Positions 2,403 to 50,466 of a DNA stretch of 64,000 nucleotides are shown here, piece by piece (the first letter of the stretch is position 1; the number at the start of each line of letters is the position of its first letter). This DNA comes from Candidatus Microgenomates bacterium (GTDB lineage Bacteria; Patescibacteriota; Microgenomatia; UBA8517): NCBI GenBank assembly GCA_049519355.1, contig JBEKQV010000003.1, positions 83,646 through 147,645 on the forward strand, written 5' to 3'. The notes below the pieces were generated by a model. That model saw only the letters and a list, made by a program, of their open reading frames with translations, did no database searches and was not told the DNA's origin. Both the position numbers and the translations under genes were made by a program.

Positions 2403-3593
2403 CTATTTTGGGAAACCAGGGTTTATATAATTTTTAAGCTTGGAGATTTGCCACATAAGTACTGAATTTAAAGTCAGTATTAAAACAAAAATTAGGATTA
2501 GAGCGTTCCCTCCCAAAAAAATTCCTCCGATTAGGGCAACTATTGCCGCGCCCATAATGGTCACAACGTTATCCATTCCGATTCCGACCAACGCATCACC
2601 AATTCGTCCTTTAGGATTGGTGGTGTAGTCATGAATAACAAGAATCTCGCCGAGACACCCGACCACACCGGTTAACACTCCGGAAATGACAAAAGGAAGG
2701 CCCGTAATCACCGAAAAAGTTTCAACAGCTGTGACCATCGCCTCGGCTGCCAGAAGAATAGCCCCGCCAGATATTAAAAGATGCAGCCAGATGGTTACAC
2801 CGGATTTATGTTCGTAATACCTTTCTTCATTTTCAATTTCCGGTACGGGGCTTTTTTCTCTCTTGGTTTTTCTGAAACGAAAAATGATCACGATTGTTAA
2901 AACCAAAATCAAAAGCCCTATGGGCCTGACCAGCTGATATAAATCCCCAGTAATTCCGGCCGGAGGATTTGCAATCCTTCCAAAAATAACCATGCTAACC
3001 GCAACCACCATAGTCAAAAGTGTAAGTGCATTAATTACATCCATAGAGATATCAATTTCCTCCATCGCCGGCAGGTTTATGTGCTGACTCATTGGTTTAA
3101 CAGTTCCACCCTTTTTCAAAAAAGGAAAAATATTTATCGGATGGCCCAGTCTGTTGGCACTATTTTGCCGGAAAACGCACCAAATTGCGTAACCAATGTT
3201 ATAAATATTTGAGCCGAAAGTTGTCGCGGCGGCAATAATTGCAAAGTTTATCGCAGCAGCATAATCGGAATCCCGAAGCCTTAAGCTTATTACCGCGGCA
3301 ACAATTCCCAAAACCATGTCAGGAAAAGCAGTTCCAACCGATTGAAGCACACCGCCGGCAATTTTTGTCCGTTCACTTAAAACCTCTGTCGTCTCCTCGA
3401 TAATTCCCGCCGTCCCCTGAAGAACATAAAATGCTCCAAATCCGATAATAAGAATTATTCCCAGTATTTTCACCCAAAATGAGTTTCCGGAAGCTAAAAA
3501 ACCAACGACGTAAAACTGCAAAAAAGCTCCAACAACAAGCATGCTTAAAATGTATATGTACCTTCTTTGCTGAAATTTTTCAAACATAACCAA
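2403..3593 (-). CDS. Ca2+/cation antiporter (CaCA, YrbG-like) family membrane protein, putative
   Basis: 396 aa, about 10 TM helices. Two internal alpha-repeat-like segments: GTAFPDMVLGIVAAVISL...GSNIYNIGYAI and LTGVVGCLGEILVIHDY...GMDNVVTIMG. Confidence 0.4.
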   Translation of the reverse strand: MVMFEKFQQRRYIYILSMLVVGAFLQFYVVGFLASGNSFWVKILGIILIIGFGAFYVLQGTAGIIEETTEVLSERTKIAGGVLQSVGTAFPDMVLGIVAAVISLRLRDSDYAAAINFAIIAAATTFGSNIYNIGYAIWCVFRQNSANRLGHPINIFPFLKKGGTVKPMSQHINLPAMEEIDISMDVINALTLLTMVVAVSMVIFGRIANPPAGITGDLYQLVRPIGLLILVLTIVIIFRFRKTKREKSPVPEIENEERYYEHKSGVTIWLHLLISGGAILLAAEAMVTAVETFSVITGLPFVISGVLTGVVGCLGEILVIHDYTTNPKGRIGDALVGIGMDNVVTIMGAAIVALIGGIFLGGNALILIFVLILTLNSVLMWQISKLKNYINPGFPK

Positions 3594-4076: not shown

Positions 4077-4385
4077 TTACTTATTATACCTCTCGACCGT
4101 TAGAGTGCATTCGGTCAAAAGCGCCGCTATTGTCCCCACCGCCGCCAGCATGGGAGCAATTAGTGCTCCTACCACTCCTATGGTTAGAGGAAATGTGACA
4201 ATTTCTTTCCCCTTTTTATCGGAAATGGTAATTCTACGAATATTTCCTTCTTTAATCAGTTCCTTAACTTTTTTCAGAACCTCCTCACCTTTTAGTCTGA
4301 ATTCTTCCCTCCTTACGGCTCTTGCTTTTCTCCTCGCCGCCTTTGTTTTTCTTTTTGCCTCTTTTGCTTTCTTCATTAATATCAA
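4077..4385 (-). CDS. DUF4342-like small protein: Lys/Arg-rich N-terminus plus conserved hydrophobic beta-hairpin
   Basis: 102 aa. KKAKEAKRKTKAARRKARAVRRE N-terminal tail. Core GNIRRITISDKKGKEIVTFPLTIGVVGALIAPMLAAVGTIAALLTECTLTVER matches the DUF4342 pattern. Confidence 0.45.
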   Translation of the reverse strand: MILMKKAKEAKRKTKAARRKARAVRREEFRLKGEEVLKKVKELIKEGNIRRITISDKKGKEIVTFPLTIGVVGALIAPMLAAVGTIAALLTECTLTVERYNK

Positions 4386-4436
4386 CCCCGATCCACCACA
4401 AATATACCACCAAAATTTAACGTTGCAACAGAAAAA

Positions 4437-4856
4437 TTAAGGTTTCGCCGCAGGAGATTTTCGGAATACCAGAAGAAGACCAAGAATAAAGACCGTAATC
4501 ATGTCGAGTTGGCAGGCGGTACAAACCGGACAAACAACATGAAGCTGGAATAGCTCGCGGAAAGCAATGTAAAGACAAAATGCCAAACCAAAAGTTGCCA
4601 TCCCCAAAACCAATTTTGGCATTTTCTTGAAAGCGGCAATCATAATCACAATGTAGCCGATAAAACCATATAAAGGCGTCGGAATCCCCAAAGTCTTAGA
4701 AACGGCGCCGCTTATGACTGCATTGCAGTTAACAGTTGAGTTAATATTGCAGGGAATAAATTTGGAAGGAAAAGCCTGTTCCCAAAGAAGGTAAGTTGCA
4801 AGAATAATTCCAATCCCCGCTAAAATTTTTACCCAATCAAAATATTTTTCTTTCAC
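4437..4856 (-). CDS. Vitamin K epoxide reductase (VKOR) family membrane thiol oxidoreductase
   Basis: 139 aa, 4 TM. Loop cysteines C..NINSTVNC. The CPVCTAC active-site CxxC lies at the start of the last TM, as in VKOR. Confidence 0.55.
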   Translation of the reverse strand: MKEKYFDWVKILAGIGIILATYLLWEQAFPSKFIPCNINSTVNCNAVISGAVSKTLGIPTPLYGFIGYIVIMIAAFKKMPKLVLGMATFGLAFCLYIAFRELFQLHVVCPVCTACQLDMITVFILGLLLVFRKSPAAKP

Positions 4857-4877
4857 CTTTTTAGTATAACAGATTTT

Positions 4878-6320
4878 TTAAGCAAATCCCGGAAAATAAT
4901 CGGTTTTGATTTGACTGTTCGCTACACTCAGTTGCCTAAGCGTATTCTTAAACCCGTCAACCATAGACTTTGGGCCCGATAGATAAAATATCCGGTTTTT
5001 ATAATCCGGAACTTCCTTAAAAATAAAATTCTCCTGAAAACGACCAACATTATAATAAGTTTTAATTCCAAGTTTATAATGAGCTTGATCAAAAACATCT
5101 TTATATACAAAATCCCCTTCTTTTGCGGAATACATCAGGACAATATCCCGCCTTTGGTTCGTATCGATTAAGTATTTGACCATGCTTCGAAATGGAGTAA
5201 CCCCTATTCCCCCCGCGATAAAAACCAATTTTTTGCCCATATCTTTCGGCATGGTAAAATCGCCGATGAGTTGTCCTGCGACAATTTTTTGCCCCGGAAC
5301 AAGATTCATTAACTTTCTTTTGAAAGAACTCGGAGGAGAGCCGACTTTAACCCCAATTCTTACTTCATCCTCGGTTGGACTGGAAGCCAACGATAAATAT
5401 CTTCTATTTCCCCTCGTATCAGGTTTTTCATGCTCAAGCGTCCATTCCATATATTGCCCCGGCGTAAAATTTACGTTATTGTCGGGAACAAAAACGAAAT
5501 CGATTAGGTCAGGTGCCAACCGGATTTTTTCTTTTAAAGTTAAAACCAATTTGTATTTCGGGCTTACGATATAAGAAAAGATATTGCCGATAATAAGGGC
5601 AATTTCTGGAGTTGTATAGATACTTCCGAAATGAACTTGCGGAGCAAACAAAAATCCGACAAGTGCACCGTACAAAATTCTTAAAGTTTTGGTTGGAGGT
5701 GTGGTTAAAGGTTCGGTTAACATTACGGCCGCGAAAAATATTAAGGGCGTATCACTAACCGATCTGATCCACCTTGCCGGTCCGATTAAAATTAATGCGA
5801 CAACTAAAAAACTCAAAACCATATCCCATCTTTTGATCTTCCTGACTATCAAAAATCCTCCTAGTATCACAACTGGAAGCATTGAGGATACTCCCACCCA
5901 CCAATCTGCACTTGCTCCAATTGCAAACGCAGTAATAGCAACGGAGATCGCAACCGGATTAAAGATGTGTTTTTTCCCGATTGCTAAAACAAATTTTGAA
6001 GTAACCATAAGTACAGCCGCCCAACCCAGAAAAATAACATCATGTATGGATTTTGGAGGCGCAATAATAAGGCCCAAAATTAGGGCAGAAATGATCCAGC
6101 TCTCAACATTTGCCTGAGCCTCATATACTTTGGCAAAAATTTTATTGGCCATCCCAGCAACAACGAGAAGAAAGGTAAATGAAAAAACATAACTTACGGG
6201 ATCGAAAGGAAGAACACCCGCGATGGAATAAATCAAGCCGACCACGCCCAACAAAATTAAAAAGTACAGAATCAATCTGTACATAGTGATGCTATTTAAA
6301 AAGTCGTCCAGGGCTTTCAT
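4878..6320 (-). CDS. Membrane-embedded FAD/NAD(P)-binding oxidoreductase: N-terminal multi-TM domain fused to a ferredoxin-NADP-reductase-like domain
   Basis: 480 aa. First ~235 aa are hydrophobic helices. C-terminus has the FNR-type FAD motif RRYLSLASSP, the NAD motif GGIGVTPF and the YLSGPKSMV tail. No Cys cluster for Fe-S. Confidence 0.6.
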   Translation of the reverse strand: MKALDDFLNSITMYRLILYFLILLGVVGLIYSIAGVLPFDPVSYVFSFTFLLVVAGMANKIFAKVYEAQANVESWIISALILGLIIAPPKSIHDVIFLGWAAVLMVTSKFVLAIGKKHIFNPVAISVAITAFAIGASADWWVGVSSMLPVVILGGFLIVRKIKRWDMVLSFLVVALILIGPARWIRSVSDTPLIFFAAVMLTEPLTTPPTKTLRILYGALVGFLFAPQVHFGSIYTTPEIALIIGNIFSYIVSPKYKLVLTLKEKIRLAPDLIDFVFVPDNNVNFTPGQYMEWTLEHEKPDTRGNRRYLSLASSPTEDEVRIGVKVGSPPSSFKRKLMNLVPGQKIVAGQLIGDFTMPKDMGKKLVFIAGGIGVTPFRSMVKYLIDTNQRRDIVLMYSAKEGDFVYKDVFDQAHYKLGIKTYYNVGRFQENFIFKEVPDYKNRIFYLSGPKSMVDGFKNTLRQLSVANSQIKTDYFPGFA

Positions 6321-7042
6321 TTCTTTACATATTTCTCAAAACCGCCAGTCATTGTCGCAATCCCCCGTGAGTCAATCATGTAACCTTCCAAACCTTCCCG
6401 CTTCTCAATAAATTCAATACCTTTTATCCCCATTGCAAACGCAGGAGTTGAAAACTTATCGGCTTCAAAAACGTCCGGACCAATTACCGTCAAACTGACA
6501 ATGTCCAAAATTATATTTTTCTTTCCGATAGGGTCATAGATATGCTGCCCCCTTTCATAAGTCCCGGATGTTGCAATTCCGCAATCGGAAAGTTCGAGAA
6601 CTTTAACAATCTCACTTACGTTAAATGGATTCCTAATTCCCCAAGTCCAATTTTTCCCGACGATTTCGGCGTCTCCCCCGGCATCAACATAAAACCGTTT
6701 GTATCCGAGTTTTTTTAATATTTCCGCTCCATTTTTAATTGCCCAGCCTTTTACAATACCTGAAGGATCAATTTTCCCGTCGAGTCTTCTAATATCAAAA
6801 TACCCGTTAGTCTCCTTTTTTAAATCCTCCGATAATCCCAAAATCATTTTCATCTCCGAAGAAACTTCTTCTCCTCTATTCAGTTTGGCAACCTGACTGG
6901 TTTCTTTATAAGGGCTATACTCTTCGTCCACGTAATTAAAATAATCGAAAACCTTTTGAAGATCTTTCTTGGTCTTTCGCAATTCATTCCCGGCAATTTT
7001 AACTATAACCGGCATCCCCATGATCAACCTTATTTGCTTCAT
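6317..7042 (-). CDS. apbE: ApbE-family FAD:protein FMN transferase (flavinylation enzyme)
   Basis: 241 aa. DPSGIVKGWAIKNGAEILKKLGYKRFYVDAGGD and GIATSGTYERG are typical ApbE core segments. It overlaps the upstream oxidoreductase gene by 4 bp (operon). Confidence 0.7.
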   Translation of the reverse strand: MKQIRLIMGMPVIVKIAGNELRKTKKDLQKVFDYFNYVDEEYSPYKETSQVAKLNRGEEVSSEMKMILGLSEDLKKETNGYFDIRRLDGKIDPSGIVKGWAIKNGAEILKKLGYKRFYVDAGGDAEIVGKNWTWGIRNPFNVSEIVKVLELSDCGIATSGTYERGQHIYDPIGKKNIILDIVSLTVIGPDVFEADKFSTPAFAMGIKGIEFIEKREGLEGYMIDSRGIATMTGGFEKYVKK

Positions 7043-7048
7043 ATTTGT

Positions 7049-7546
7049 TTAGCTGGCCTGAGAGAGAGCACTTTGCAATGACTGAATAAACGCCCCGCTT
7101 GTTGCTGTGGCACCACTAACTCCGTCAACCTGTGCCGACTGGGCCTGAATTGCTTCCTGAATAAGATACGGCATTGCTTGTGAATTAATCATTCTTGATG
7201 TGCTTCGGTCACTTGGATACTGCAAAAAGGTCACGTCAGTAATATTGCCGCCGAAAATCGTAACCTGCACCTGAACATTTCCGTAAAACGCATCGGCAAT
7301 GCTCCCTACATAAGTTCCATTCTTGTATCTTCCTTGAGGTGTCGCGGCCGGAACGGGAGTTTGAAGCGGCGCCTGTCCCGGTGTCGGGCCAAGTGTCGCA
7401 ACAGGAGTATCTGTCGGCAACGGGGTTGGAATAACCGTATTTGGTTTTATAACAATCGACGAAGCGCTCTCGTTCTCCAAATTTGTGTGCAGGGCGTAGA
7501 CAACAAAAATTGTTATTACTAAAGCAGATAACAAAAGCTTTCTCAT
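7049..7546 (-). CDS. Secreted FMN-binding domain protein, the likely ApbE substrate
   Basis: 165 aa. N-terminal signal/TM MRKLLLSALVITIFVVYAL, Pro/Thr linker, FMN_bind-type domain GSIADAFYGNVQVQVTIFGGNITDV...MPYLIQEAIQAQSAQVDGVSGATATS. It contains the [S/T]GAT flavin-attachment motif. Confidence 0.65.
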   Translation of the reverse strand: MRKLLLSALVITIFVVYALHTNLENESASSIVIKPNTVIPTPLPTDTPVATLGPTPGQAPLQTPVPAATPQGRYKNGTYVGSIADAFYGNVQVQVTIFGGNITDVTFLQYPSDRSTSRMINSQAMPYLIQEAIQAQSAQVDGVSGATATSGAFIQSLQSALSQAS

Positions 7547-7624: not shown

Positions 7625-8089
7625 TTATGGAGTTGCGCTCGGAGCGGGAGATCCTGCAGGTCTGGCAAACTGGGGATTGATTTGTACATTTGTTGCGGTA
7701 ACCGAACCATCCGAATTTGCAGTTCCCAAAACCATTACGTTCGAACCTGTTTTAAGATCGCTTTGAGAGGCTGAGGCAGTATTGGAATAAGTTGTGCTTC
7801 CTCCAAGAATAACTATCTTAGTTGAACCGTCGGCAAGCTTCACTGTCATTGAGTTTGTATCGATCGAAAGAATGCTTCCTGTAACTGCTCCCCCACCTGC
7901 ACGGGCTCCCGTACCGGAACGTGATCCCGTAAACCTCTGGAAAGTTCCGCTAGCTCCTCCTGCACCTGCAGCAAAACTACCGCGACTTTGACTAAGCCTG
8001 TAGTTTCTGTATTGATAGCCGCCGAAAAATCCGGCCCCAAGGCCTACCAAAACTAGAATTATCGGAACAATAACCTTCGTGTTTTTCAT
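7625..8089 (-). CDS. Hypothetical secreted Gly/Ser/Thr-rich protein with an N-terminal TM or signal
   Basis: 154 aa. MKNTKVIVPIILVLVGLGAGFFGG, then low-complexity GSRSGTGARAGGG and a beta-rich TVKLADGSTKIVILGGSTTY segment. Confidence 0.4.
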   Translation of the reverse strand: MKNTKVIVPIILVLVGLGAGFFGGYQYRNYRLSQSRGSFAAGAGGASGTFQRFTGSRSGTGARAGGGAVTGSILSIDTNSMTVKLADGSTKIVILGGSTTYSNTASASQSDLKTGSNVMVLGTANSDGSVTATNVQINPQFARPAGSPAPSATP

Positions 8090-8138
8090 ACTCTCGTAGT
8101 ATATTATATTCCGTACCTGAGGGAAAGCTTAAAAGCAA

Positions 8139-9362
8139 CTATTCATAACGTAGGGCTTCAATCGGCTGAAGGTCGGAGGCTTTCTTGGCAGGATACCAAC
8201 CAAAGAGAATTCCGATTCCGGCCGAAACCCCAATGGCAAGTGCCACCGAGCCCACTGAAATCGCAAACGGAATACTCACAAGTTTGGAAATAACTACAGA
8301 AATTAAAACTCCGACAATCATTCCAATTACTCCCCCGGCAAAGGTTAAAATAATTGCCTCAACCAAAAACTGGGTAATAATATCTTTTTTCTTGGCACCA
8401 AGCGCTTTTCTAAGTCCAATTTCGCGTGTTCTTTCGGTAACGGTAACAAGCATGATATTCATAATTCCTATTCCTCCGACAATCAGAGAAATTGCCGCAA
8501 TGCCGGAAAGTAGCGCCGTAAATGTTCCTGTTACTGAAGAAGCAGTAGAAAGAATATCGTTTTGGGAAAGAATGGTGAAATCGGCATTAGCAACCTGACT
8601 AATACCGTGTCTATCAAGAAGAAGATAACCAACTTGGTCTTCCACCGAATTCATTACACTTTCATTTTTTGCCTCAACCGCAACTGAGGTTAAACTGGTC
8701 GCACCAAAGATGTCGTTCATTGCTGTGGAAAGCGGAATATAGATAGTATCATCCTGGTTACCAAACCCTGTCCCGCCCTTACTGATCGTAATCCCAATAA
8801 TCTTGAAGGATTGGCCCTGAATTCTAATTGATTGTCCGAGAGGATCGACATTTACTCCAAATAAATCCGATACGACGGTTGGCCCGACTACCGCAACTTT
8901 TGATTGCCTGGCGTTATCGTTATCCGAAATGAACTGTCCTTCCGAAACACCGACTTTATGGACCGTTGCATAAACCGCCTGAACCCCGACAATTGAGGTA
9001 TTAGTGTTCTTACTGCCTGCAGTCACTTGTGCGCGCCTGGAGTACTCAGGTGAAACATTCACCACATCGGTAACCGTCGGAGAGCTAGCAATAGCCTGTG
9101 CGTCGGCAAGAGTCAAGGTGGTGGCACTCCCCGCTCCGCCCTGAATAAATCCGCCCCTTTGGCTTCCGGGGGAAATCGTCAAAAGATTGGCGCCCAGCGC
9201 CTGAATTTGGCTTGAAACTGCCGCTTGGGAACCCTGTCCCAACGCAACGAGGGCAATAACACTTCCGATTCCGATGACAATCCCGAGAATTGCCAGAAAA
9301 GTTCTCAGTTTATTTATCCTGAGGGTACTTAATGCCTCCAAAATTATTTCGTTAAAATTCAT
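8139..9362 (-). CDS. ABC transporter permease, MacB/FtsX type
   Basis: 407 aa. N-terminal TM LRINKLRTFLAILGIVIGIGSVIALVALGQG, large periplasmic domain, and a C-terminal FtsX-like 3-TM bundle. Confidence 0.8.
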   Translation of the reverse strand: MNFNEIILEALSTLRINKLRTFLAILGIVIGIGSVIALVALGQGSQAAVSSQIQALGANLLTISPGSQRGGFIQGGAGSATTLTLADAQAIASSPTVTDVVNVSPEYSRRAQVTAGSKNTNTSIVGVQAVYATVHKVGVSEGQFISDNDNARQSKVAVVGPTVVSDLFGVNVDPLGQSIRIQGQSFKIIGITISKGGTGFGNQDDTIYIPLSTAMNDIFGATSLTSVAVEAKNESVMNSVEDQVGYLLLDRHGISQVANADFTILSQNDILSTASSVTGTFTALLSGIAAISLIVGGIGIMNIMLVTVTERTREIGLRKALGAKKKDIITQFLVEAIILTFAGGVIGMIVGVLISVVISKLVSIPFAISVGSVALAIGVSAGIGILFGWYPAKKASDLQPIEALRYE

Positions 9363-9363
9363 A

Positions 9364-10062
9364 TTATTTGATTATGACTCTTTGCTTGTGATCACGCCCG
9401 TCTTTAACAACCTTTCCGTCCAATATGTGAATAATTCTCTGAGCATGTTCAGCAATATCCGATTCGTGAGTAATCATTACAATTGTGTGGCCTTCTTTGT
9501 TTAACTTTTGAAAAATCGCCATAATTTCGGCAGCTTGGCTGGAAGCAATATTTCCTGTAGGTTCATCAGCCAAAATTATTGAAGGGTTCATAACAAGACT
9601 CCGGGCTATAGCAACCCTTTGCTGTTGTCCTCCCGAAAGTTGATTCGGAGCGTTATTTAATCTATCGGACAGTCCCACCATGTCCAAATATTTCCTAGCG
9701 ATTTTTTCCCTATCAACCTTATCAACACCGCCGTAAGTCATCGGAAGCTCAACGTTTTTAAGAGCTGAGGTTCTCGGAAGCAAGTTAAAAAACTGAAAGA
9801 TAAAACCGATTTTTCTGTTTCTGATATCAGCCAGTTCATCATCGGAAAGATTTTCTACATTTTCCCCATCAAGTACATAAGTACCGGAGGTTGGAGTATC
9901 CAAGGCGCCAATTATATGCATTAAGGTTGACTTGCCAGATCCCGAAGGACCCATTATTGCCACAAATTCGCCTTTTTTTATCTCAAATGAAACATCATCA
10001 AGCGCTTTAACCTCAACGTCTCCAGTTTGATAGATTTTACTTACATGAGAAACACTAATCAT
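9364..10062 (-). CDS. ABC transporter ATP-binding protein (MacB/LolD-like)
   Basis: Walker [11 protein letters not shown]-loop, ABC signature [15 protein letters not shown], Walker [11 protein letters not shown]-loop ITHE. Confidence 0.85.
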
Positions 10063-10067
10063 GAAGA

Positions 10068-11426
10068 CTAACCTCCTCTCCCTCCGGTTACGGCCCTGAT
10101 TGTCCCTCCGCCAAACCCGCCGGTTCCGGAACTGAATACGGATCTTGTCGAAGAAGTGGTTGAACTTGCCGCAACGGTTCCCGTAATCACAGTTTCACCT
10201 TCGGTTAGTCCCGAGGTTATAACAGTATTTGTATCATCGGAAATTCCAACCTCAACCGGCACCTGAACCTCTTTGCCGTTTTGTAGTACTTGGGCATAAT
10301 TTTGTCCGTTTTGGGTTACGAGAGCCGCCGAAGGAATATAAAGTGCATCGGTCGCGGTCGAGGTAATAATATTTGCCGTTGCGGCCATGTTGGGCAAGAT
10401 TTGATCACTGCCGCTATCAAGCTTGATATTTACTCCATAGCTTGTAACGTTTGAGGAAACTGTTCCGATTCTGTCAACCGTCGCCACAACTCCGGTAAAA
10501 GTCTCATTTGTAATGGAATCAAAAGTGATTGTTGCTTTTTGTCCTATTTGAACATTCGGCACGTCGGTTTCTCCCAAAGTTACGTTAACAATCGGGGTGG
10601 CGTTATTCTTAATAACCGCGATCCTCTGCGAAGAGACGGCACCCGATGTTGAGTTTGTACTTGCTGTGATAACCATTCCTTCAACCAAATTAATGTCAGC
10701 TATTGTTCCTGTATAAGGAGCCGTAATTGTAGGAGAGGAAAGCTGCAAATTGACGGCAGCATTGCTTAAAGATATTTTGGCCTGGTTCAAAGTCGTTTGC
10801 TGATTTTCAAAACTGGCCTGAGCCGCAAGCCAGGCATCGTTTTCCTGAATATAAGTAGGATCAGTCGTATCCAAGTTCCTGGCAGCGGCATCGTTTACAA
10901 AAGCCTGATTTGCCTTAAACTCAGCCGATTGAAGGTTGTAATAATCATTCTGGGCCGAAACCAAACCACTCTGGGCCGAATAATAACTTGAAAGAGCCTG
11001 TGCATATTGCTGTTGTCCGGTTTGGTCCACAGTAATATCGGCAATCTTCTGACCTTGAAACACGCTGTCCCCGTCTTTTACATAAACTTTGGAAACAATA
11101 CCTGAAGTATCTGTACTTATTGGAAGAACACTTGTTGAAATTGCCCGGCCCGAGGCACTCACCGTAGAAACAACTGTCCCTTTTTGAACTGTTGAAGTCT
11201 GATATTGGACCTTATTGGCACCAGCCGTGACCAGCCTCCAGATCCCAAAAATCATTAGGAGAACGATGATAATAGCTCCAACCATTCTCATTTTACCGGC
11301 ACGGATCCAGCCAAAAAAAGATTTTATTTTCGAACCGGTTTTTTGCCAAAAGTTAGGCTTAATTTCAGATTCATTGATAATGTCTGGTCCGACAATTTCT
11401 TTTTCCTCTTTTGTCTTTTTTGCCAT
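10068..11426 (-). CDS. HlyD/MacA-family periplasmic adaptor (membrane fusion protein) with a Gly-rich C-terminal tail
   Basis: 452 aa. N-terminal TM MRMVGAIIIVLLMIFGIW, long coiled-coil region (QQYAQALSSYYSAQSGLVSAQNDYYNLQSAEFKANQAF), beta-barrel/MP domains. C-terminus GTGGFGGGTIRAVTGGRGG. It directly precedes the ATPase and permease genes. Confidence 0.7.
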   Translation of the reverse strand: MAKKTKEEKEIVGPDIINESEIKPNFWQKTGSKIKSFFGWIRAGKMRMVGAIIIVLLMIFGIWRLVTAGANKVQYQTSTVQKGTVVSTVSASGRAISTSVLPISTDTSGIVSKVYVKDGDSVFQGQKIADITVDQTGQQQYAQALSSYYSAQSGLVSAQNDYYNLQSAEFKANQAFVNDAAARNLDTTDPTYIQENDAWLAAQASFENQQTTLNQAKISLSNAAVNLQLSSPTITAPYTGTIADINLVEGMVITASTNSTSGAVSSQRIAVIKNNATPIVNVTLGETDVPNVQIGQKATITFDSITNETFTGVVATVDRIGTVSSNVTSYGVNIKLDSGSDQILPNMAATANIITSTATDALYIPSAALVTQNGQNYAQVLQNGKEVQVPVEVGISDDTNTVITSGLTEGETVITGTVAASSTTSSTRSVFSSGTGGFGGGTIRAVTGGRGG

Positions 11427-11519: not shown

Positions 11520-12671
11520 GTGAACATTTTAATCGCCACCGAAACATACCTTCCTTATATTTCCGGAGTTGCGGTTTCAACAGACTCGATTGCCAGGTAT
11601 ATGGTTTCGCAGGGGCATAGTGTTACCGTGGTTGCCCCAACATATAATATTGATAAACCCGTAACTCCTATGCCCGGATTAACAATAGTAAGAATCCCCT
11701 CTATCCCCAATCCGTTTTACCGAGGTATGTCTTCCGCAATTTTTCCCTTCTGCCTTCCCTATATTGAAAAAGTCTTCAAGGGACAAAAATTTGATATCGT
11801 CCATATTCAGGAACCCACTGCAATTGGAATTTCGGCCCTAATTCTGGCCAAAAAATATAAAATTCCTGTCGTTGGAGCGCTTCATTTTACCCCGGAACAA
11901 ATAAGCCGTATGGTCCCGGGGAAGCCGGAAAAAATAGTTAGCCCCCTCGTCAGAAAGTACATAAAATTTATTTACAATAAATACGACGCAGTCATGGTGC
12001 CTACCCAAACTTTTGCGGATTTTCTGGTTGGCGATGGGGTAAAAAAACATATTGAGGTGGTCTCAAATGGAGTCAACATAAACAATTTTCACCCGGCAAG
12101 TCGTAGTGAGGCAATCAGAAAAAAACTTGGTATAGGCAAAGAGGATGTTGTATTTTTCTTTCTGGGAAGACTCGAACTGGACAAAAACGTAATTACTCTT
12201 ATTAAAGCCCTACCTTACGTCGGTGAAAAGATGAAGCTCCTTGTCGTCGGAACCGGAAAGATAGAAAAGGTTTTACATTCGCTGGCAAGTAGGTTAAAAG
12301 TCGAGGATAGGATTATTTGGGTTAAACATATAACTGATGCCGAAATGCCGGATTATTACCACGTAGCAGACTGTTTCACCATTATGTCTCCTTACGAAGT
12401 TCAAAGCATTGTTACTCTTCAGGCAATTGCATCAGGACTTCCGATTATTGCCGCGCGTGCAGGTGCCCTGCCGGAACTATGTAGGGACCATAAGAACGGC
12501 TTTTTGGTTGATACTTACGATTACAAAACCTTGGCTGCCAGAATGGATGAACTCTATCACAACAAAAAAATGCGCGACGACTTTGGAAAGGAAAGTAGAA
12601 AAATGAGCCTTGCTCACAATAAACCTGACGTACTTCACAAACTGGAGTTACTTTACAAAAGTCTTGCCTAG
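11520..12671 (+). CDS. Glycosyltransferase family 4 (GT-B, Glycos_transf_1)
   Basis: 383 aa. N-terminal MNILIATETYLPYISGVAVSTDSIARYM and C-terminal E-x7-E-like region GLPIIAARAGALPEL typical of GT4 enzymes. Confidence 0.75.
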   Translation: MNILIATETYLPYISGVAVSTDSIARYMVSQGHSVTVVAPTYNIDKPVTPMPGLTIVRIPSIPNPFYRGMSSAIFPFCLPYIEKVFKGQKFDIVHIQEPTAIGISALILAKKYKIPVVGALHFTPEQISRMVPGKPEKIVSPLVRKYIKFIYNKYDAVMVPTQTFADFLVGDGVKKHIEVVSNGVNINNFHPASRSEAIRKKLGIGKEDVVFFFLGRLELDKNVITLIKALPYVGEKMKLLVVGTGKIEKVLHSLASRLKVEDRIIWVKHITDAEMPDYYHVADCFTIMSPYEVQSIVTLQAIASGLPIIAARAGALPELCRDHKNGFLVDTYDYKTLAARMDELYHNKKMRDDFGKESRKMSLAHNKPDVLHKLELLYKSLA

Positions 12672-13727
12672 ATTAAGCTTTCCCTGAGCCGACGGAAGTT
12701 GAACCGAAAATGTACTTCCCTTACCGACAACGCTTACCACTTTAATCTTTCCGTTCATTTTATCGACAATCGACTTGGCTATGGATAGACCCAGTCCATA
12801 ACCGTCAACTTTTTCATTGGACCTTGACGTTTCAACCCTATAGAATCTGTCAAAAATATGCGGAAGCTCGGCTTCGCTTACACCAACCCCAAAATCCTCA
12901 ACTTCGAAAATTCCACCATTTTTTGTCCTGACTACAATCCTCTTACTTTTACCTGAATATTTTATGGCGTTGTCTATTAGTATTGTTGCAAGTTCGGTTA
13001 GAGCGCTTTCATTGGTGCTAACCTCAACTTTCGGCAGGTTTGCATTTATTTTGATCCTTCTCGCAATCGCAAGAGGTCTGACCTTTTCGATTGCGGCAAG
13101 CATTACTTTACTCAAGTCAACTTTTCCGGTTTCAAGTTTAATATCAGAATTTTCATACTTATTGAGCTCAAGCAAATAATTTGAAAGACGCTGCATGTGG
13201 TTAACATCTTCCAGGTTGCTTTTCAAAAGCTTTTTGGCTTCACCGATATCTATTTTTTTGTCCCTTAGCGCAACTTCAATTTCGGTCTTAAGCGATGTCA
13301 GCGGAGTACGGAGTTCATGAGATGCATTTCCGACAAATTCCTTTTGATCTTCAACCATTTTTGATATCGGGTCCAGAGTGAGTCCCGCCAGAATGTACCC
13401 GCCGGCACCGGAGAGAATCAAAATTGAAAGATTTATAATTCCAAGAATGGAAATAATCCGGACCCTGGCTTCCTCCACAGTTTCCGAGTCGAGAGATTGA
13501 ACTTCAGGAGGAACCGAAAGCCCATTTTGCGTCAAGAAGCTGCTAATTGTATCGACTCTCTCCTGTCTAACTCTTTGCAAATTGTCAATTCTCGTAAGTT
13601 CTCTATCGACACTGACATAAATTGCTATCGAAAAACTAAGACTTATCACCATGATGATGAGAAGATACCAACCGGTGAGTCTTATTCGTGCTTTCTCAAA
13701 CATTTTCGATTTTACTATCAGCGTCAC
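12648..13727 (-). CDS. Sensor histidine kinase (two TM segments, short extracytoplasmic loop, HisKA + HATPase_c)
   Basis: H-box NASHELRTPLTSL; N/G1/G2 boxes LIDNAIKYS, DFGVGV, GYGLGLSIAKSIV. Translationally coupled to the response regulator upstream. Confidence 0.75.
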   Translation of the reverse strand: MTLIVKSKMFEKARIRLTGWYLLIIMVISLSFSIAIYVSVDRELTRIDNLQRVRQERVDTISSFLTQNGLSVPPEVQSLDSETVEEARVRIISILGIINLSILILSGAGGYILAGLTLDPISKMVEDQKEFVGNASHELRTPLTSLKTEIEVALRDKKIDIGEAKKLLKSNLEDVNHMQRLSNYLLELNKYENSDIKLETGKVDLSKVMLAAIEKVRPLAIARRIKINANLPKVEVSTNESALTELATILIDNAIKYSGKSKRIVVRTKNGGIFEVEDFGVGVSEAELPHIFDRFYRVETSRSNEKVDGYGLGLSIAKSIVDKMNGKIKVVSVVGKGSTFSVQLPSAQGKLNLGKTFVK

Positions 13728-14404
13728 CGCTGAGAGCCAAGGTTTGAATCATATTCTATTTTATAACCAAACCCTCTGACCGTCTTTATAAAATCGCCAC
13801 CAATTTTATCACGCAAGTAACCAACAAAAACTTCAACTGTATTAGGTAAGATATCACTCTCATAGTCCCAGACATGAGCAATGATATTCTCCTTGGAAAC
13901 AACCTTGCCTGCGTTGCGCATAAGATATTCCAAAAGTGCAAATTCTTTCCTAGAAAGCTCAATCACCTTACTGCCTTTTTTCACTTCAAAACTATTTACA
14001 TTAAGTTCAAGATCTTTTACCTTTAAGGTGGTTCCGATTCCTTCTTTGGGACGACGGGAAAGTGCCCTAACTCTGGCCAAAAGTTCTTCAAAAGCAAACG
14101 GTTTGACCAAATAATCATCCGCACCTGTATTTAGACCATTAACTTTATCGGCGAGCTCGCCTCTCGCGGTGAGTATTAAAATCGGAGTGTGATTCTCTTC
14201 GGCACGTAGCTTCCGGCAAATTTCCATTCCGTCCATCCTTGGAAGCATCAAGTCAAGTACAATCACGTCATAATCTTCGGATGAAGCCATGTCGAATCCG
14301 GTTTCGCCATCATAGGCAACGTCGGTTGCCCAAGACTCCTGTTCAAACCCACGTTTTATGGAGTTGGCAATTTTGTGTTCGTCTTCTACAACAAGTATTC
14401 TCAT
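13724..14404 (-). CDS. OmpR/PhoB-family response regulator
   Basis: Receiver MRILVVEDEHK...DVIVLDLMLPRMDG with conserved Asp and TAR/K residues. C-terminal winged helix ...VWDYESD...NTVEVFVGYLRDKIG. Confidence 0.85.
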   Translation of the reverse strand: MRILVVEDEHKIANSIKRGFEQESWATDVAYDGETGFDMASSEDYDVIVLDLMLPRMDGMEICRKLRAEENHTPILILTARGELADKVNGLNTGADDYLVKPFAFEELLARVRALSRRPKEGIGTTLKVKDLELNVNSFEVKKGSKVIELSRKEFALLEYLMRNAGKVVSKENIIAHVWDYESDILPNTVEVFVGYLRDKIGGDFIKTVRGFGYKIEYDSNLGSQR

Positions 14405-29904: not shown

Positions 29905-31704
29905 TTATACCCCCAACTCCTTTCTTTTTTTATCTGTCCATTTTTCCGATTCCCGCCGGGCAAGCGAGTAATCATTCATATCAACCTTCATACCGGCAAA
30001 CAAGTCCGGATGAACGGCACTGGCTTGAGTCGCCATCTCCTGAACTATATGCCTGTAATGCGAACGGCCTTGGGGACCGGTCCGAAGTTCGCCCATGTAG
30101 TACATTTCTCTAGCGGTTAAGTTAACATACCAATGCTGGATATAAGCAAACGCAACAGTATACTGTGCAACTTCGGGAAATTCTTTGTGGATTAATTCAT
30201 AAACTGGAGAGACAAGCTTAAGAGCGATTTCAATTTCATTAACAAAGGGCGAGGCCAAAACCTCTTTTTCGACATCATAACCCCATTTCGTCGTAAAAGG
30301 CTGACGCTCCTGGGTAAGCAGGCGGTGTCTGTGAAGATCTCTATAGTCGCCGCCTCTTGCCCAAAGTGCAAAAGTGTATCTCGAATTCTCAAAAGCCCTG
30401 GGAACTCTTTTAAATCTTACGTCCTCTCTTTTTGGGTTGTTATTGCCGGGGCTTCTTTGTTCAAATATCCTTTCAAAGATTTTTCTTCTCTCGTCCTTCG
30501 ACATTCCGACAACTCTCGCCCGAACCTCAGAGTAGTTAGGAGACGACCCCCCACCAAATATAAAAGCCGTTAGAACATCTACTTCCCCTGTCTTTGTGTA
30601 GTCAATAAGTTTTGACCAACCACCCCTTTCCATTTCTACCACACCCTTGAATTTCTCATCGGAAATTTCGTCACGGAGTCTCCTAATGTCTTTCTTATAC
30701 TCCTGGAGTTCCTTCCCCATTGGAGTATCAACCCTTCGAATAAATGAGGGTGTTACGCGCTGCAGTTCAGAAGCGATTTTAGAACCCCAATAACGCAACT
30801 CTCCCAATGGATGTCTGGCAATCCGGTTAATCAAATATTCGTATGATCTGCCGTTGCCGTACAAACCAATATTTGTCAGCGTAGAAAAAGTCAATAAATC
30901 TCTCAAATCATCAAAAACTTTGGCCCGGCGTGATTTTTCAAATGATGCATCACTTTCGTCATCTCCTTTTGGAAAAACGTCTTTTATATAGTTAAAGTAA
31001 GGCTCTACCAATCTAGCGTAAGTTCCAAAAAGAATATCCGTCATAGCTCGATAGGAACGCTCGTATACTGTGCCCTTTATTTCTCCCGGAACAACATATT
31101 TATAATTACCATCAGGAAGCTTGTCTGCAAATGAAACATACCTTGACGATTTTTCGATTGGTGAAATTCCAATTCTTTGATCCTCAATCTCTTTGGTTGC
31201 TACATTCGAGAGCCCTTCTATACAAAGGTGGATTCCTCCAAGTTCCGATATGGAATCGTCTCCAAAATCCACAAGCCATTTATTAAAAAAGTTTCTGCCT
31301 CTTTGAATATTAACAATATAATCAATGCCTCCATTGGTGTTCAAAAAATTAATCAGCTCAACAAATTTTTGCCGCGACAGTAGCGTTTCCTGCTGTTCCT
31401 TGTGGGACAAACTCGACCAATTTTTTTGACTTTCAGGATGAACAATCGGTTCTACATACTCTTTAAGAAATGTTCTGCGCATGCTTTCGGTTGCACGGCT
31501 ATATTTCGCCGACAAAGCCCCGATTACTTCCTCAGGAAGATGTTGAACAACAAAAACAGATTGATCAATATTGCTGAAAAACGGATTTAAGTACCGGACT
31601 TCCTCCGGAGTAAATTTTTCGGAAGTATATGGGGGAGCAAATTGTTCAAGATTCTCACCTTCGACTTCTTCCCGTCTAAAACTATGTGCGGCAAATTCCG
31701 GCAT
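29905..31704 (-). CDS. Large RHR-motif protein, tentatively a long flavin-dependent thymidylate synthase (ThyX-like) paralogue
   Basis: 599 aa. LHRHRLLTQERQ resembles the ThyX RHRx7-8S dUMP-binding signature and ALSAKYSRATE resembles the ThyX N-terminal AARVSY segment. It lies between tmk and MazG/dCMP-deaminase genes. The assignment is weak. Confidence 0.3.
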   Translation of the reverse strand: MPEFAAHSFRREEVEGENLEQFAPPYTSEKFTPEEVRYLNPFFSNIDQSVFVVQHLPEEVIGALSAKYSRATESMRRTFLKEYVEPIVHPESQKNWSSLSHKEQQETLLSRQKFVELINFLNTNGGIDYIVNIQRGRNFFNKWLVDFGDDSISELGGIHLCIEGLSNVATKEIEDQRIGISPIEKSSRYVSFADKLPDGNYKYVVPGEIKGTVYERSYRAMTDILFGTYARLVEPYFNYIKDVFPKGDDESDASFEKSRRAKVFDDLRDLLTFSTLTNIGLYGNGRSYEYLINRIARHPLGELRYWGSKIASELQRVTPSFIRRVDTPMGKELQEYKKDIRRLRDEISDEKFKGVVEMERGGWSKLIDYTKTGEVDVLTAFIFGGGSSPNYSEVRARVVGMSKDERRKIFERIFEQRSPGNNNPKREDVRFKRVPRAFENSRYTFALWARGGDYRDLHRHRLLTQERQPFTTKWGYDVEKEVLASPFVNEIEIALKLVSPVYELIHKEFPEVAQYTVAFAYIQHWYVNLTAREMYYMGELRTGPQGRSHYRHIVQEMATQASAVHPDLFAGMKVDMNDYSLARRESEKWTDKKRKELGV

Positions 31705-47145: not shown

Positions 47146-48162
47146 TTACTTCTCGACTCCAAACCTCTTCACTGCTGAGGATATAATTTCACCAACCACC
47201 TTCACCGGGGTAAACCCTGCAACCCTCGCCGCGAGAGGAAAATAACTTGTTACGTTTGGATCGAAATTAAGGCCCGGGAGAGTGTTAACTTCGAGGAAAT
47301 AAAGCCTTCCTTTTTTGTCCATTCTATAATCAATTCTTGCTGCGTCTCTAACATTCAAAAAGTCAAAAATTGTCAACGACGTCGATTCAATTAATTCTTT
47401 CTCCTTTTTTGTAAGATGAGCCGGACAGTCGTAGGCATCCGACAGGTTTTTAAGTTTATCCTCAAAAAACCATTTTAATTCATACCCTGCAATTTTTTTA
47501 TAACCCTTGGGAAGAAAGTCAAATTTTTGCTCGACAATCGGTAAAACCCTCGGTTTTCCTCCCAAAAGGGCCACCGTGAATTCCCGCCCGTCAATAAATT
47601 CCTCAACCAATGTCGATCCGAAATTTTTGATCATAAACCTTGCCCGTTCTTCCAAATCCTTTTTGTTGTCAACTACATTTTTGTCATAAACTCCTTTACT
47701 CGAGCCTTCCATGTTTGGTTTAAGGATAAGCGGAAAATTTAAATTGATATCCGAAAGCTCCTTAAGTGAACTAATTACTTCCCAATCCGGAACACAAACA
47801 TCATCGGCTTTGAGAATCTTTTTAGTAATGGATTTATTTAAACACGTCGCGTGGACGCTGGGAGTCGAATGGGTATAAGGGATTTCCAACATTTCACAAA
47901 AGATCGGAATCTGCGATTCTCTGGCATCCCCTCGAAGACCCTCGGCAATATTGAAAACCAAGTCAATCTTTCCCTTCAAACTTCTAAGTTTATCGAATGC
48001 ATCTAAGTTTGCTTCAACCATCGTAACTTCATGACCAAGTTCCTCGATCGCCGTTTTAATCAAACCGATGGTTATCGGAAAGTCAAACTCAGCATCTTCT
48101 TGCTCTTTGGGGTTAAGCGAAGGCGACCCCTTTTTTACATTAAAGGCCAGGGCAATTCTCAT
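47146..48162 (-). CDS. ATP-grasp ligase of the D-Ala-D-Ala ligase (Ddl/L-amino-acid ligase) family, divergent
   Basis: 338 aa. Ddl-like N-domain (DLVFNIAEGLRGDARESQIPIFCEMLEIPYTHS), central FPLILKPNMEGSSKGV, C-terminal REFTVALLGG...YFLEVNTLPGLN. Lacks the canonical N-terminal GGxSxEHEVS. Confidence 0.65.
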   Translation of the reverse strand: MRIALAFNVKKGSPSLNPKEQEDAEFDFPITIGLIKTAIEELGHEVTMVEANLDAFDKLRSLKGKIDLVFNIAEGLRGDARESQIPIFCEMLEIPYTHSTPSVHATCLNKSITKKILKADDVCVPDWEVISSLKELSDINLNFPLILKPNMEGSSKGVYDKNVVDNKKDLEERARFMIKNFGSTLVEEFIDGREFTVALLGGKPRVLPIVEQKFDFLPKGYKKIAGYELKWFFEDKLKNLSDAYDCPAHLTKKEKELIESTSLTIFDFLNVRDAARIDYRMDKKGRLYFLEVNTLPGLNFDPNVTSYFPLAARVAGFTPVKVVGEIISSAVKRFGVEK

Positions 48163-48272
48163 TTCATGGAGGTTATGTTAGAAGACAAAGGATCCTCGCC
48201 GTCAGAGGAAGTTGTAATAATCATAATGAACAGATTATATAACATTGGTATTTAATTAAAACAAGAAGTTAT

Positions 48273-48911
48273 TTAGGAAGCCTTCATGCCGAGTTTCCTA
48301 GGCCAATTCTCCCCTTTCGGAGCTATTATGAAAAGCATTTTTTTGTCGGTTACACTTTTCTTTCCGATTATATTTACATCCCACCATCTTTTCTCGAAGT
48401 CTTTAAGTTTAAACTTTCTGTCAACCCCGGCGAATTTGAAAAAGGGATCCGCAAGTCTTAGATAACCCGCTTCTCTATTTACCCTGGTCACCACACAGTA
48501 ATGACCATTGTCGCCATCCGCGTATTCGTAGAAAACTCCTTGCCACTCGACTCCCACAGGATACTGGTACTTATTTACAATTAGGGATAGGTTGGAAATC
48601 GTAGAATTGGCCTTCCTCCAAAAAACAAACTTGCCCTTGCCGAGTTTTTTAACCGACGACCCTAATTCGTCGACGTTCAAACCGGTGCTTTTTATCTTCC
48701 CACCGGCTCTAATCGATCTGACCACGAGCGCCTGGGAAACCTTATAACCCAAAAAGGAAAAAAGAGTTTCAATTACGGCCGGCCCGCAGTGGGAAGAGGT
48801 AACTTGCTTCGCTCTTTTCATCTTGGGGAAAGGCTTGCCTACAACCTTATCCTCAAGCTGAAGCAGCCTGCGGACGAGCCTCCTGGTTTTGGGGTTTTTC
48901 TCGAGTGGCAT
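48273..48911 (-). CDS. Papain-fold cysteine peptidase, C39-like / BtrH-N-like
   Basis: Gln-x5-Cys context KQVTSSHCGPAVIETL (nucleophile Cys in C-G-x-A) and downstream DNGHYCVVTRV (GH-aromatic-hydrophobic His motif). Confidence 0.5.
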   Translation of the reverse strand: MPLEKNPKTRRLVRRLLQLEDKVVGKPFPKMKRAKQVTSSHCGPAVIETLFSFLGYKVSQALVVRSIRAGGKIKSTGLNVDELGSSVKKLGKGKFVFWRKANSTISNLSLIVNKYQYPVGVEWQGVFYEYADGDNGHYCVVTRVNREAGYLRLADPFFKFAGVDRKFKLKDFEKRWWDVNIIGKKSVTDKKMLFIIAPKGENWPRKLGMKAS

Positions 48912-48946
48912 AATTGGCCTATTCTAGGACTAGAAGTCAAATTTGT

Positions 48947-50023: not shown

Positions 50024-50046
50024 ACATTCATAATATAATATGCAAG

Positions 50047-50466
50047 ATGAAAAAAGTAGTCTTGGTTGGCGGTTGTTTCGACATTATCCATTATGGACAC
50101 ATCCACTTCCTAAAACATGCAAAAACTTTGGGTGATTATCTGATTGTGGCATTGGAATCAGATAAAAACATCAGAAGATTGAAAGGCAAAAAGCGCCCAA
50201 TTCACGGCCAAAATCAAAGACGGGAAATGCTTGAGTCTCTTAGCTTTGTCGACCAGGTGATTATTCTTAAAGATGAAATGAAGGATAAAGATTATTTTGA
50301 TTTGGTCAAAAAAGTAAAACCCCAAATAATAGCAGTAACTAAAGGAGATCTAATTATCGGAAAGAAAAAGAAACAGGCGGAAGAAATCGGAGCGGAAGTA
50401 ATCGAAATATCTAAAGTTGACTCCCCATCTACTTCCGAGATTGCCAAACTTTTGAAGATTGAATAA
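50047..50466 (+). CDS. Cytidylyltransferase-like nucleotidyltransferase (TagD / RfaE-II / RibL family)
   Basis: MKKVVLVGGCFDIIHYGHIHFLKHAKTLGDYLIVAL carries the (H/T)xGH motif and aligns with the TagD N-terminus. Start at internal ATG 50047. Confidence 0.6.
   Translation: MKKVVLVGGCFDIIHYGHIHFLKHAKTLGDYLIVALESDKNIRRLKGKKRPIHGQNQRREMLESLSFVDQVIILKDEMKDKDYFDLVKKVKPQIIAVTKGDLIIGKKKKQAEEIGAEVIEISKVDSPSTSEIAKLLKIE

Follow-up and report, generated by a model that had tools for sequence, protein, structure and literature searches.

An NQR/RNF-like flavinylation gene triad in a Candidatus Microgenomates bacterium and a proposed outward route for NAD(P)H electrons

Can a bacterium without a respiratory chain pass electrons from NAD(P)H to the outside of its cell, and with which genes? 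Bacteria of the candidate phyla radiation (CPR; Patescibacteria) are usually regarded as episymbionts that live by fermentation and have no electron-transport chain. The question is raised by a locus in a stretch of 64,000 nucleotides (nt) from a Candidatus Microgenomates bacterium (GenBank assembly GCA_049519355.1, contig JBEKQV010000003.1, positions 83,646 to 147,645 of the forward strand), here called the window. An earlier description made from the letters alone (the sequence-only reading) had proposed an electron relay that links NAD(P)H in the cytoplasm with an extracellular flavin, encoded by four co-oriented genes for a VKOR, a polytopic membrane domain fused to an FNR-type domain (hereafter the fusion), the flavin transferase ApbE and a secreted protein that binds flavin mononucleotide (FMN), here called FMN_bind. 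We find that FMN_bind, ApbE and the fusion form a conserved triad and that the locus is a member of the NQR/RNF-like class of flavinylation-associated systems, which has already been described, including in CPR. With a probability of about 0.72, two genes of the triad specify the subunits of an Nqr/Rnf-like flavoprotein complex that carries NAD(P)H electrons to a flavin outside the cytoplasm, and the third supplies the flavin transferase.

The class, with 127 clusters found mainly in Actinobacteria and CPR, was defined by Meheust et al. 2021: one polypeptide has an N-terminal PF03116 domain (NqrB/RnfD) and a C-terminal PF00175 domain (NqrF-type, NAD-binding), no more than five genes away lies ApbE, FMN_bind or both, and an export signal is present in at least one of these (PMC8238504). 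In the window, one polypeptide has both domains, ApbE and FMN_bind directly precede its gene, and FMN_bind has a hydrophobic N-terminal signal or anchor. The second subunit is NqrC/RnfG-like and has a flavinylation motif (PF04205, D141xxS144GAT147), and the NqrB/RnfD-like subunit lacks the flavinylated Thr. In the AlphaFold-multimer model of a Ktedonobacter complex by Huang et al. 2024, the NqrB/RnfD-like subunit likewise has no flavinylation site, and the FMN borne by the NqrC-like subunit extends to where the NqrB-like subunit holds its flavin (PMC10979944). Nothing essential separates the locus from the class of these two papers, and calling the relay notable overstated its novelty, given that the same architecture and function had been proposed before (PMC8238504, PMC10979944). 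The main text of both papers does not mention the short ApbE without export signal, the VKOR of a sub-clade or the HlyD-ABC-MacB-DUF5666 neighbourhood that are described below.

A conserved triad of genes

The open reading frames (ORFs) for FMN_bind, ApbE, the fusion, VKOR, a DUF4342 protein and a 159-residue membrane protein are all on the minus strand and tightly packed. The triad and its parts are as follows.

7546-7049, minus strand: FMN_bind gene (ORF list), 165 residues; an NqrC/RnfG-like subunit with an N-terminal signal-anchor (residues 1-19), a Pro/Thr-rich linker and a C-terminal FMN-binding domain
7106-7126, minus strand: flavinylation motif D141-G-V-S144-G-A-T147 of FMN_bind (regular-expression match), T147 being the predicted FMN-phosphoryl acceptor
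7042-6317, minus strand: ApbE gene (ORF list), 241 residues; a short flavin transferase without export signal (PF02424, alignment, hydropathy)
6320-4878, minus strand: gene of the membrane and FNR fusion (ORF list), 480 residues
5556-6320, minus strand: NqrB/RnfD-like membrane domain, fusion residues 1-255 (PF03116, AlphaFold2 and Foldseek)
4881-5555, minus strand: FNR-type domain for flavin adenine dinucleotide (FAD) and NAD(P)H, fusion residues 256-480 (PF00175, NCBIfam, Foldseek)

The spacing of the module genes is operon-like, with 6 nt between FMN_bind and ApbE, a 4-nt ATGA overlap joining ApbE and the fusion, 21 nt between the fusion and VKOR and 51 nt between VKOR and DUF4342. The four genes of the sequence-only reading are present as co-oriented ORFs with Pfam matches, and all matches reported here for FMN_bind, ApbE, VKOR, DUF4342 and the fusion are above the gathering scores. 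FMN_bind and ApbE happen to be in frame, with TAA and two codons between them; a fusion of the two by stop read-through was rejected because spacing and frame vary among orthologues, with extremes of a 4-nt overlap and a gap of about 20 nt. No Rfam element, riboswitches included, was found near the locus, and a scan for promoters and terminators gave no more sites than shuffled sequences did, so that such sites serve merely as a weak hint on operon boundaries.

Conservation was assessed in 27 loci with a full-length fusion, two of which (L083 and L084) are near-duplicates, by searching their ORFs with jackhmmer profiles seeded with the window proteins. FMN_bind was found in 20 and ApbE in 22 of these loci, and in 19 the order FMN_bind, ApbE, fusion is kept with the genes nearly abutting (-4 to +22 nt). 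This arrangement is far beyond chance. The hosts are Microgenomates-like, Peribacteria, Amesbacteria, Nomurabacteria, Adlerbacteria and Saccharibacteria metagenome-assembled genomes (MAGs) and Ktedonospora formicarum, and the triad also occurs in MAGs labelled as other phyla, including Alphaproteobacteria and Methylocapsa. An Anaerolineales contig outside the 27 (L008) has the FMN_bind-ApbE pair just upstream of a truncated fusion. A lack of synteny in relatives, which would have spoken against the sequence-only reading, is thus not seen for the triad, and the triad is the functional unit. In Ktedonospora formicarum (L005:5765-10451) IS240-family DDE transposase genes lie at either flank of a bare triad, a setting to be expected of a self-sufficient unit and one that suggests joint movement of the three genes. 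The fusion family is sizeable: a search with the N-terminal domain, clustered at 50% identity, gave 317 representatives at E<=1e-30 and 738 at E<=1e-10, and the best matches are mostly 480-515 residues long, that is, fusions.

The three proteins

The C-terminal half of the fusion is a complete two-subdomain FNR-type module. PF00175 (NAD_binding_1) matches at E 5e-7 (30.8 bits, cut-off 22), the NCBIfam flavohemoprotein, NqrF and Fre models align over residues 269-476, and a PDB profile search with the fusion listed FNR-domain proteins only (flavohemoglobin, NqrF). By Foldseek, the domain reaches a target-normalised TM-score (TMt) of 0.79 to 4eh1, and the NqrF and SpNOX dehydrogenase domains were also matched. 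Its motifs are RRYLS (306-310), GGIGVTP (370-376) and DYFPGFA at the C-terminus; the GGxGxxP named in the sequence-only reading fits exactly, and its RxYS only approximates the actual conserved sequence R306-R307-Y-L-S310. The position of the module after the last helix of the NqrB/RnfD fold, across a K-rich junction, suggests that it is cytoplasmic.

The membrane domain is a homologue of NqrB/RnfD; the fusion of a polytopic membrane domain with an FNR domain had been described correctly, and this homology had gone unrecognised. PF03116 (NQR2_RnfD_RnfE) matches at E 2e-7 (31.2 bits, cut-off 27.7), and phmmer of the domain against the PDB gave a single marginal match, to Azotobacter RnfD (8ahx_D, E 0.008). 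The AlphaFold2 model of residues 1-262 has a predicted local distance difference test (pLDDT) of 87 and a predicted TM-score (pTM) of 0.86, and all 15 of its Foldseek matches in the PDB at E<1e-3 are NqrB or RnfD, with query-normalised TM-scores (TMq) of 0.57-0.72; TMq was 0.70-0.72 to the RnfD chains 8ahx_D, 7zc6_D and 9eri_D, over about 290 aligned columns. A model of the full-length fusion had returned FNR-domain matches only, and modelling the N-terminal domain alone exposed the NqrB/RnfD fold. The next group, after a 1000-fold gap in E-value, is the urea transporters, which are known structural relatives of NqrB/RnfD (PMC12174285).

The 10-helix NqrB/RnfD core is retained whole. Two blocks of the family profile of the N-terminal domain align with E. 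coli RsxD (profile 21-132 with RsxD 23-133, profile 149-252 with RsxD 226-333), and RsxD 134-225, including SQAT187P with the flavinylated T187, is replaced by about 16 residues; a motif search found no [ST]GA[ST] anywhere in the fusion. On this alignment, the NqrB-like domain has lost the loop that bears the flavinylated Thr. There is no cysteine in the fusion sequence, which excludes Fe-S clusters from it and leaves a flavin-only electron path. The NCBI model of the identical protein is annotated as RnfD and starts at M13 (468 residues). We favour the longer start, with an ATG that overlaps the ApbE stop (region 6285-6320), because residues 1-12 are kept among homologues, D5, L8, I11 and T12 at 90% or more.

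FMN_bind matches PF04205 (E 9e-11) and, weakly, NCBIfam rnfG over the motif region. Its DGVSGAT fits the canonical flavinylation motif Dxx(s/t)gA(T/S) (PMC12052999, PMC8238504), and VD(I/G)(V/I)SGAT is conserved among the orthologues, so that the Thr for attachment, T147, is both present and conserved. By hydropathy and charge, the N-terminus consists of R2 and K3, 17 hydrophobic residues, acidic residues and a Pro/Thr-rich linker, and all orthologues have an N-terminus with K/R followed by hydrophobic residues. The protein, with an anchor of the Sec type, is therefore predicted to be signal-anchored or secreted, with the N-terminus in and the C-terminus out; the hydrophobic segment 1-19 and the motif agree with its earlier description as a secreted SGAT protein. 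Export of a folded, already flavinylated FMN_bind by the twin-arginine (Tat) pathway was considered and rejected, since none of the 17 closest orthologues has a twin-arginine signal; the Arg-rich leaders of some over-extended ORFs in loci of high GC content are outside this set.

ApbE matches PF02424 (E 1e-35) and ApbE structures in the PDB (down to E 4e-13), and S159 (ATSGTY), H167 (GQHIYDP) and D195 (EADKFST) align with the conserved Ser, His and Asp of E. coli Ftp, residues that are defined in PMC12052999. Hydropathy shows no hydrophobic segment. An in-frame TAA 6 nt before its start makes the ORF maximal; in an alignment with E. coli Ftp and 13 orthologues, the protein begins at the first beta-strand, equivalent to 'LEGKTMGTFW' in E. 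coli Ftp, which there comes after a 20-residue lipoprotein signal. The same holds more widely: no signal peptide, lipobox or transmembrane (TM) segment was found in any of 16 aligned orthologues from CPR, Chloroflexota and Actinobacteria (L001-L006, L008-L011, L013, L015, L019, L024, L081 and L083). A missed N-terminal extension was rejected, the ORFs being maximal, and the longer apparent extensions in L004, L082 and loci of high GC content are out-of-frame FMN_bind overlaps that precede the conserved start. The main ApbE clade, including the window protein, also has an internal deletion of about 54 residues relative to canonical ApbE and E. coli Ftp.

The claim that ApbE flavinylates its target outside the cytoplasm therefore lacks support for the window protein, which has no export signal, although FMN_bind, the one target that bears the motif, is predicted to lie outside the cell. 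Cytoplasmic ApbEs that serve cytoplasmic FMN_bind targets are known, for example for the Klebsiella fumarate reductase, and ApbE accepts peptide tags of seven residues (PMC12052999). Meheust et al. 2021 (PMC8238504) and Huang et al. 2024 (PMC10979944) make no comment on the missing signal. We speculate that the near-C-terminal motif of FMN_bind is flavinylated in the cytoplasm before or during Sec export, which would agree with how closely the genes are coupled in translation and with the acceptance of 7-residue tags by ApbE. If true, cytoplasmic flavinylation would spare a cell without periplasm the export of FAD.

Electron path and competing explanations

In the complex that we propose, subunit 1 (480 residues) would combine the 10-helix NqrB/RnfD-type domain with the cytoplasmic C-terminal FNR-type dehydrogenase domain, and subunit 2 (165 residues) would hold an NqrC/RnfG-like FMN-binding domain tethered to the outer membrane face by its N-terminal helix and linker, with FMN attached to T147 by ApbE. 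NAD(P)H would donate a hydride to the FAD of the FNR domain, and single electrons would move on to a flavin bound non-covalently by the NqrB-like domain, where NqrB/RnfD has its riboflavin, then to the covalent FMN of subunit 2, docked where the covalent FMN of NqrB/RnfD has been vacated, and from there onward to an extracytoplasmic acceptor. In Rnf and Nqr, the path runs from the FMN of RnfG/NqrC outside to the FMN and then the riboflavin of RnfD/NqrB, near the cytoplasm, and on to RnfC or quinone; RnfG/NqrC is on the extracellular side and the riboflavin of RnfD/NqrB lies toward the cytoplasm (PMC12174285). The proposed route would amount to the RnfG-RnfD-RnfC (or NqrC-NqrB) half run outward, with the RnfC or quinone site replaced by the FNR domain and no Fe-S cluster. 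We infer cofactor occupancy, flow direction and acceptor, and the docking by analogy with Huang et al. 2024. Of the relay put forward in the sequence-only reading, the core fits the domain content, topology and conserved synteny, while a general place for VKOR in the module, a link with DUF4342 and an ApbE acting outside are unsupported.

The locus resembles several known systems. With Na+-NQR (NqrABCDEF) it shares homologues of NqrB, NqrC, the FAD/NADH domain of NqrF and ApbE, but NqrA, NqrD/E and the 2Fe-2S domain of NqrF are absent, the covalent-FMN loop of NqrB is deleted, the NqrF-like and NqrB-like parts are fused, and the predicted path is one-way outward instead of semicircular to quinone. 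Rnf (RnfABCDGE; Rsx in E. coli) has the RnfD-like and RnfG-like components in common with it, whereas RnfA/E, RnfB and RnfC are absent and an FNR module, rather than a NuoF-like RnfC, handles NAD(P)H. A canonical NQR or RNF, a six-subunit complex in which NqrD/E (RnfA/E) hold an intramembrane 2Fe-2S cluster, is lacking in the window: neither NqrD/E (RnfA/E) nor NqrA/RnfC is present among the scanned ORFs, and the loop with the covalent-FMN Thr is deleted. A Pfam scan of 78 window ORFs (all apparently genuine ORFs of at least 150 residues, with DUF4342 and VKOR) found no other Nqr/Rnf subunit family and PF03116 only in the fusion. The extracellular electron transfer system of Listeria (Ndh2, EetA/B, PplA, FmnB) likewise moves electrons from cytoplasmic NADH to an ApbE-flavinylated FMN_bind outside, in a cell without periplasm; Listeria, however, uses a type-II NADH dehydrogenase, a quinone pool and an exported lipoprotein ApbE (FmnB), in contrast to the single flavin-only membrane-spanning fusion and the ApbE without export signal of the locus. 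NADPH oxidases (NOX) and ferric reductases (for example SpNOX of Streptococcus pneumoniae, PDB 8qt6) also combine a TM electron-conducting domain with a C-terminal FNR-type FAD/NAD(P)H domain, but their membrane domain has the bis-haem ferric-reductase fold; the NqrB/RnfD fold of the locus shows no signature of haem ligands and is accompanied by an extra covalent-FMN subunit.

Several points weigh against the proposed complex. The short ApbE clade lacks about 54 residues of the characterised ApbEs, so that its activity is assumed, and an ApbE without export signal leaves the flavinylation of an outside-facing domain unexplained. The topology is based on hydropathy, the positive-inside rule and homology. 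No acceptor gene is encoded in the 64-kb window, and the neighbours of the triad vary widely between lineages. The direction of flow and the preference for NADH or NADPH are unreadable from sequence, and the searched literature holds no experimental characterisation of any member of the class.

The strongest of the competing explanations turns on VKOR, which had been counted as part of the module. The VKOR here (4856-4437, minus strand; ORF list, 139 residues; PF07884, E 3e-20) has four TM segments (6-24, 58-76, 81-99 and 113-131), a loop pair of cysteines (C36/C44) and C109-P-V-C112 at the start of TM4, and is quinone-dependent with four catalytic Cys. Lying 21 nt downstream of the fusion, and adjoining it in relatives of 87, 74 and 64% identity, it suggests a minimal NAD(P)H:quinone oxidoreductase that passes electrons to a quinone bound by the NqrB-like domain, as NqrB bears a ubiquinone site in Na+-NQR (PMC12174285), and that draws on a pool common with VKOR and possibly supports disulfide formation. 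We consider this unlikely. VKOR occurs in five of the 27 loci (L081, L082, L086, L088 and L012) and is absent from the other 22: it is directly downstream of the fusion in L081 (87% identity), L086 (74%) and L088 (64%), in L082 a single gene intervenes, and in L012 there is a weak match (E 5e-5) about 750 nt downstream. None was found in L083/84, L087, L089 or the more distant loci other than L012, and in several relatives an alpha/beta-hydrolase takes its position. Both enzymes, moreover, would reduce quinone, with nothing nearby to re-oxidise it, and a quinone reductase supplied by the cytoplasmic FNR domain could do without the outward covalent-FMN subunit, yet no partner is conserved more strongly. 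There is no NqrA or NqrD/E, and the searched ORFs of the 64-kb window include no respiratory, quinone-biosynthesis or quinol oxidase genes, the remainder being ordinary housekeeping genes. CPR bacteria are in general not known to synthesise quinones. VKOR is probably co-transcribed with the module here, but is a passenger or accessory of a sub-clade outside the conserved core, and most simply an independent DsbB-like thiol oxidase that shares the transcription unit in that sub-clade. No thioredoxin is fused to it, and no Pfam match to Trx or DsbA was obtained among the 78 window ORFs scanned.

That the whole 10-helix core is kept (TMq 0.70-0.72 to RnfD) raises a different prospect, a minimal redox-driven ion pump in which the NqrB/RnfD fold couples outward transfer to the translocation of Na+ or H+. 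NqrB/RnfD are related to urea and ammonium transporters and a Na+ path through this fold has been proposed in NQR (PMC12174285), and urea transporters are the next-best Foldseek matches. Current models, however, require the NqrD/E (RnfA/E) switch and an NqrC that shuttles between two sites, both of which are absent here (PMC12174285); the ion-binding residues are backbone carbonyls and uncheckable by sequence, and the available energy depends on the acceptor. We therefore hold a pump to be quite improbable. If true, it would let a CPR cell that lives by fermentation build up a membrane potential by oxidising NAD(P)H. The combined proposal, of a flavin-only Rnf/Nqr descendant with ion-coupled outward transfer whose NqrC-like subunit also receives its FMN from a cytoplasmic ApbE, ahead of or in the course of Sec export, we regard as a long shot; if true, ion-coupled outward transfer would energise the membrane of a CPR bacterium without a respiratory chain.

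The missing export signal of ApbE, in all orthologous clusters aligned, could instead mean that FMN_bind is flavinylated and kept in the cytoplasm, as in the known cytoplasmic ApbE and FMN_bind pair of the Klebsiella fumarate reductase (PMC12052999), and that the locus encodes an inward-facing NAD(P)H oxidoreductase at the membrane, without electron export. The FMN_bind protein itself makes this very improbable: R2 and K3 before the helix and acidic residues after it predict N-in/C-out, and long linkers rich in Pro, Thr and Ser, such as this one, are usual in exposed tethers. In addition, the position of the flavinylated RnfD loop is on the outer face and RnfG/NqrC homologues are extracellular (PMC12174285), and the published AlphaFold-multimer model docks the FMN_bind domain on the outer face (PMC10979944). 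Chance adjacency of unrelated redox genes would suit VKOR, DUF4342 and the 159-residue membrane protein, which are poorly conserved beyond the triad, and is possible for VKOR, but for the triad it is contradicted and hardly credible: in 19 of 27 loci, from distantly related hosts, the three genes follow each other in one order with almost no gaps, and they are the basis of the class (PMC8238504).

Neighbouring genes and meaning of the locus

The neighbours of the triad in the window, besides VKOR, are the following.

4385-4077, minus strand: DUF4342 gene (PF14242, E 6e-26)
4074-3595, minus strand: gene of the 159-residue membrane protein (ORF list)
7625-8089, minus strand: DUF5666 membrane-anchored protein, 154 residues without Cys or His (PF18914, E 4e-6)
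9362-8139, minus strand: MacB/FtsX permease (Pfam labels on orthologues)
10062-9364, minus strand: ABC ATPase (Pfam labels on orthologues)
11426-10068, minus strand: HlyD/YknX-like adaptor (Pfam labels on orthologues)

DUF4342 and the small membrane protein, which the sequence-only reading had pointed out as neighbours in the same orientation, adjoin the module in 0 and 3 of the 27 loci. The 159-residue multi-pass membrane protein, without match in Pfam or NCBIfam, recurs in L004:9524-10006, L081:10338-10817 and L082:13347-13838, and is directly downstream of the fusion in an Amesbacteria MAG. On the other side, DUF5666 is a recurrent upstream neighbour of FMN_bind and adjoins the module in nine of the 27 loci, and the related DUF5667 lies upstream of FMN_bind in L001 and L006. 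A PDB search with DUF5666 gave no informative match and a literature search no useful result. Between DUF5666 and FMN_bind there is a terminator-like hairpin (7622-7606), a type of match that is not enriched over shuffled sequences.

The HlyD-ABC-MacB(-DUF5666) set is a commoner neighbour than VKOR, with a MacB-type permease near the module in 12 of the 27 loci. HlyD/YknX-ABC-MacB, in most cases with a DUF5666 or DUF5667 protein after it, is near the triad in the window (7625-11426, minus strand) and in L003, L006, L019, L061 and L081-L089. Three arrangements occur: in L003 the set follows the triad on the other strand, in the Actinomycetes MAG L061 it follows on the triad's own strand, and in the third it precedes the triad on that strand. 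Such recurrence may reflect a functional link or no more than shared synteny. A two-component system is located upstream in close relatives (window 12648-14404).

Further leads come from single relatives. In L089, a relative of 58% identity, a membrane-anchored type-1 cupredoxin (4255-4743, plus strand; GTHDF ... YYCSVGNHRQM) is directly upstream of FMN_bind, in the slot of DUF5666, and is a candidate extracytoplasmic electron acceptor. In L001, an Nramp divalent-metal transporter (7824-9071, plus strand) directly follows the fusion; it echoes the VIT1 association of the class reported by Meheust et al. (PMC8238504) and may indicate that some lineages reduce or assimilate metals. The cupredoxin, Nramp and VIT1 contexts suggest that the electrons of some lineages serve metal reduction or go to small redox carriers. 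Other neighbours are a thioredoxin-reductase-like gene in L013 and DoxX in L011.

Elsewhere in the window, all on the minus strand, we observed a 396-residue protein (2403-3593) with at least eight hydrophobic helices and no Pfam match, whose GSNIYN and GMDNV motifs we take to recall the alpha-repeats of Ca2+/cation antiporters; an unusually long ThyX-like protein (29905-31704, 599 residues) with two separate Thy1-domain stretches; and two ATP-grasp clusters, one with D-Ala-D-Ala-ligase-like genes, a Peptidase_C39 and an MFS transporter (47146-51717) and one with two RimK-like genes and an ATPgrasp_ST protein with a Zn-protease-like tail (60389-63506). Both clusters may serve peptide modification or biosynthesis.

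As the class is already in the literature, the locus serves above all to sharpen the questions of where flavinylation takes place and which acceptor is used. For the acceptor, relatives offer leads in the cupredoxin, Nramp, VKOR and the MacB-type ABC system with DUF5666, and the locus is a compact three-gene unit with a cysteine-free fusion, well suited to heterologous reconstitution. Regeneration of NAD(P)+ is a generic benefit to a fermenter. For CPR bacteria, a route for NAD(P)H electrons out of the cell would bear on NAD(P)+ regeneration, the acquisition of reduced metals and redox interaction with the host.

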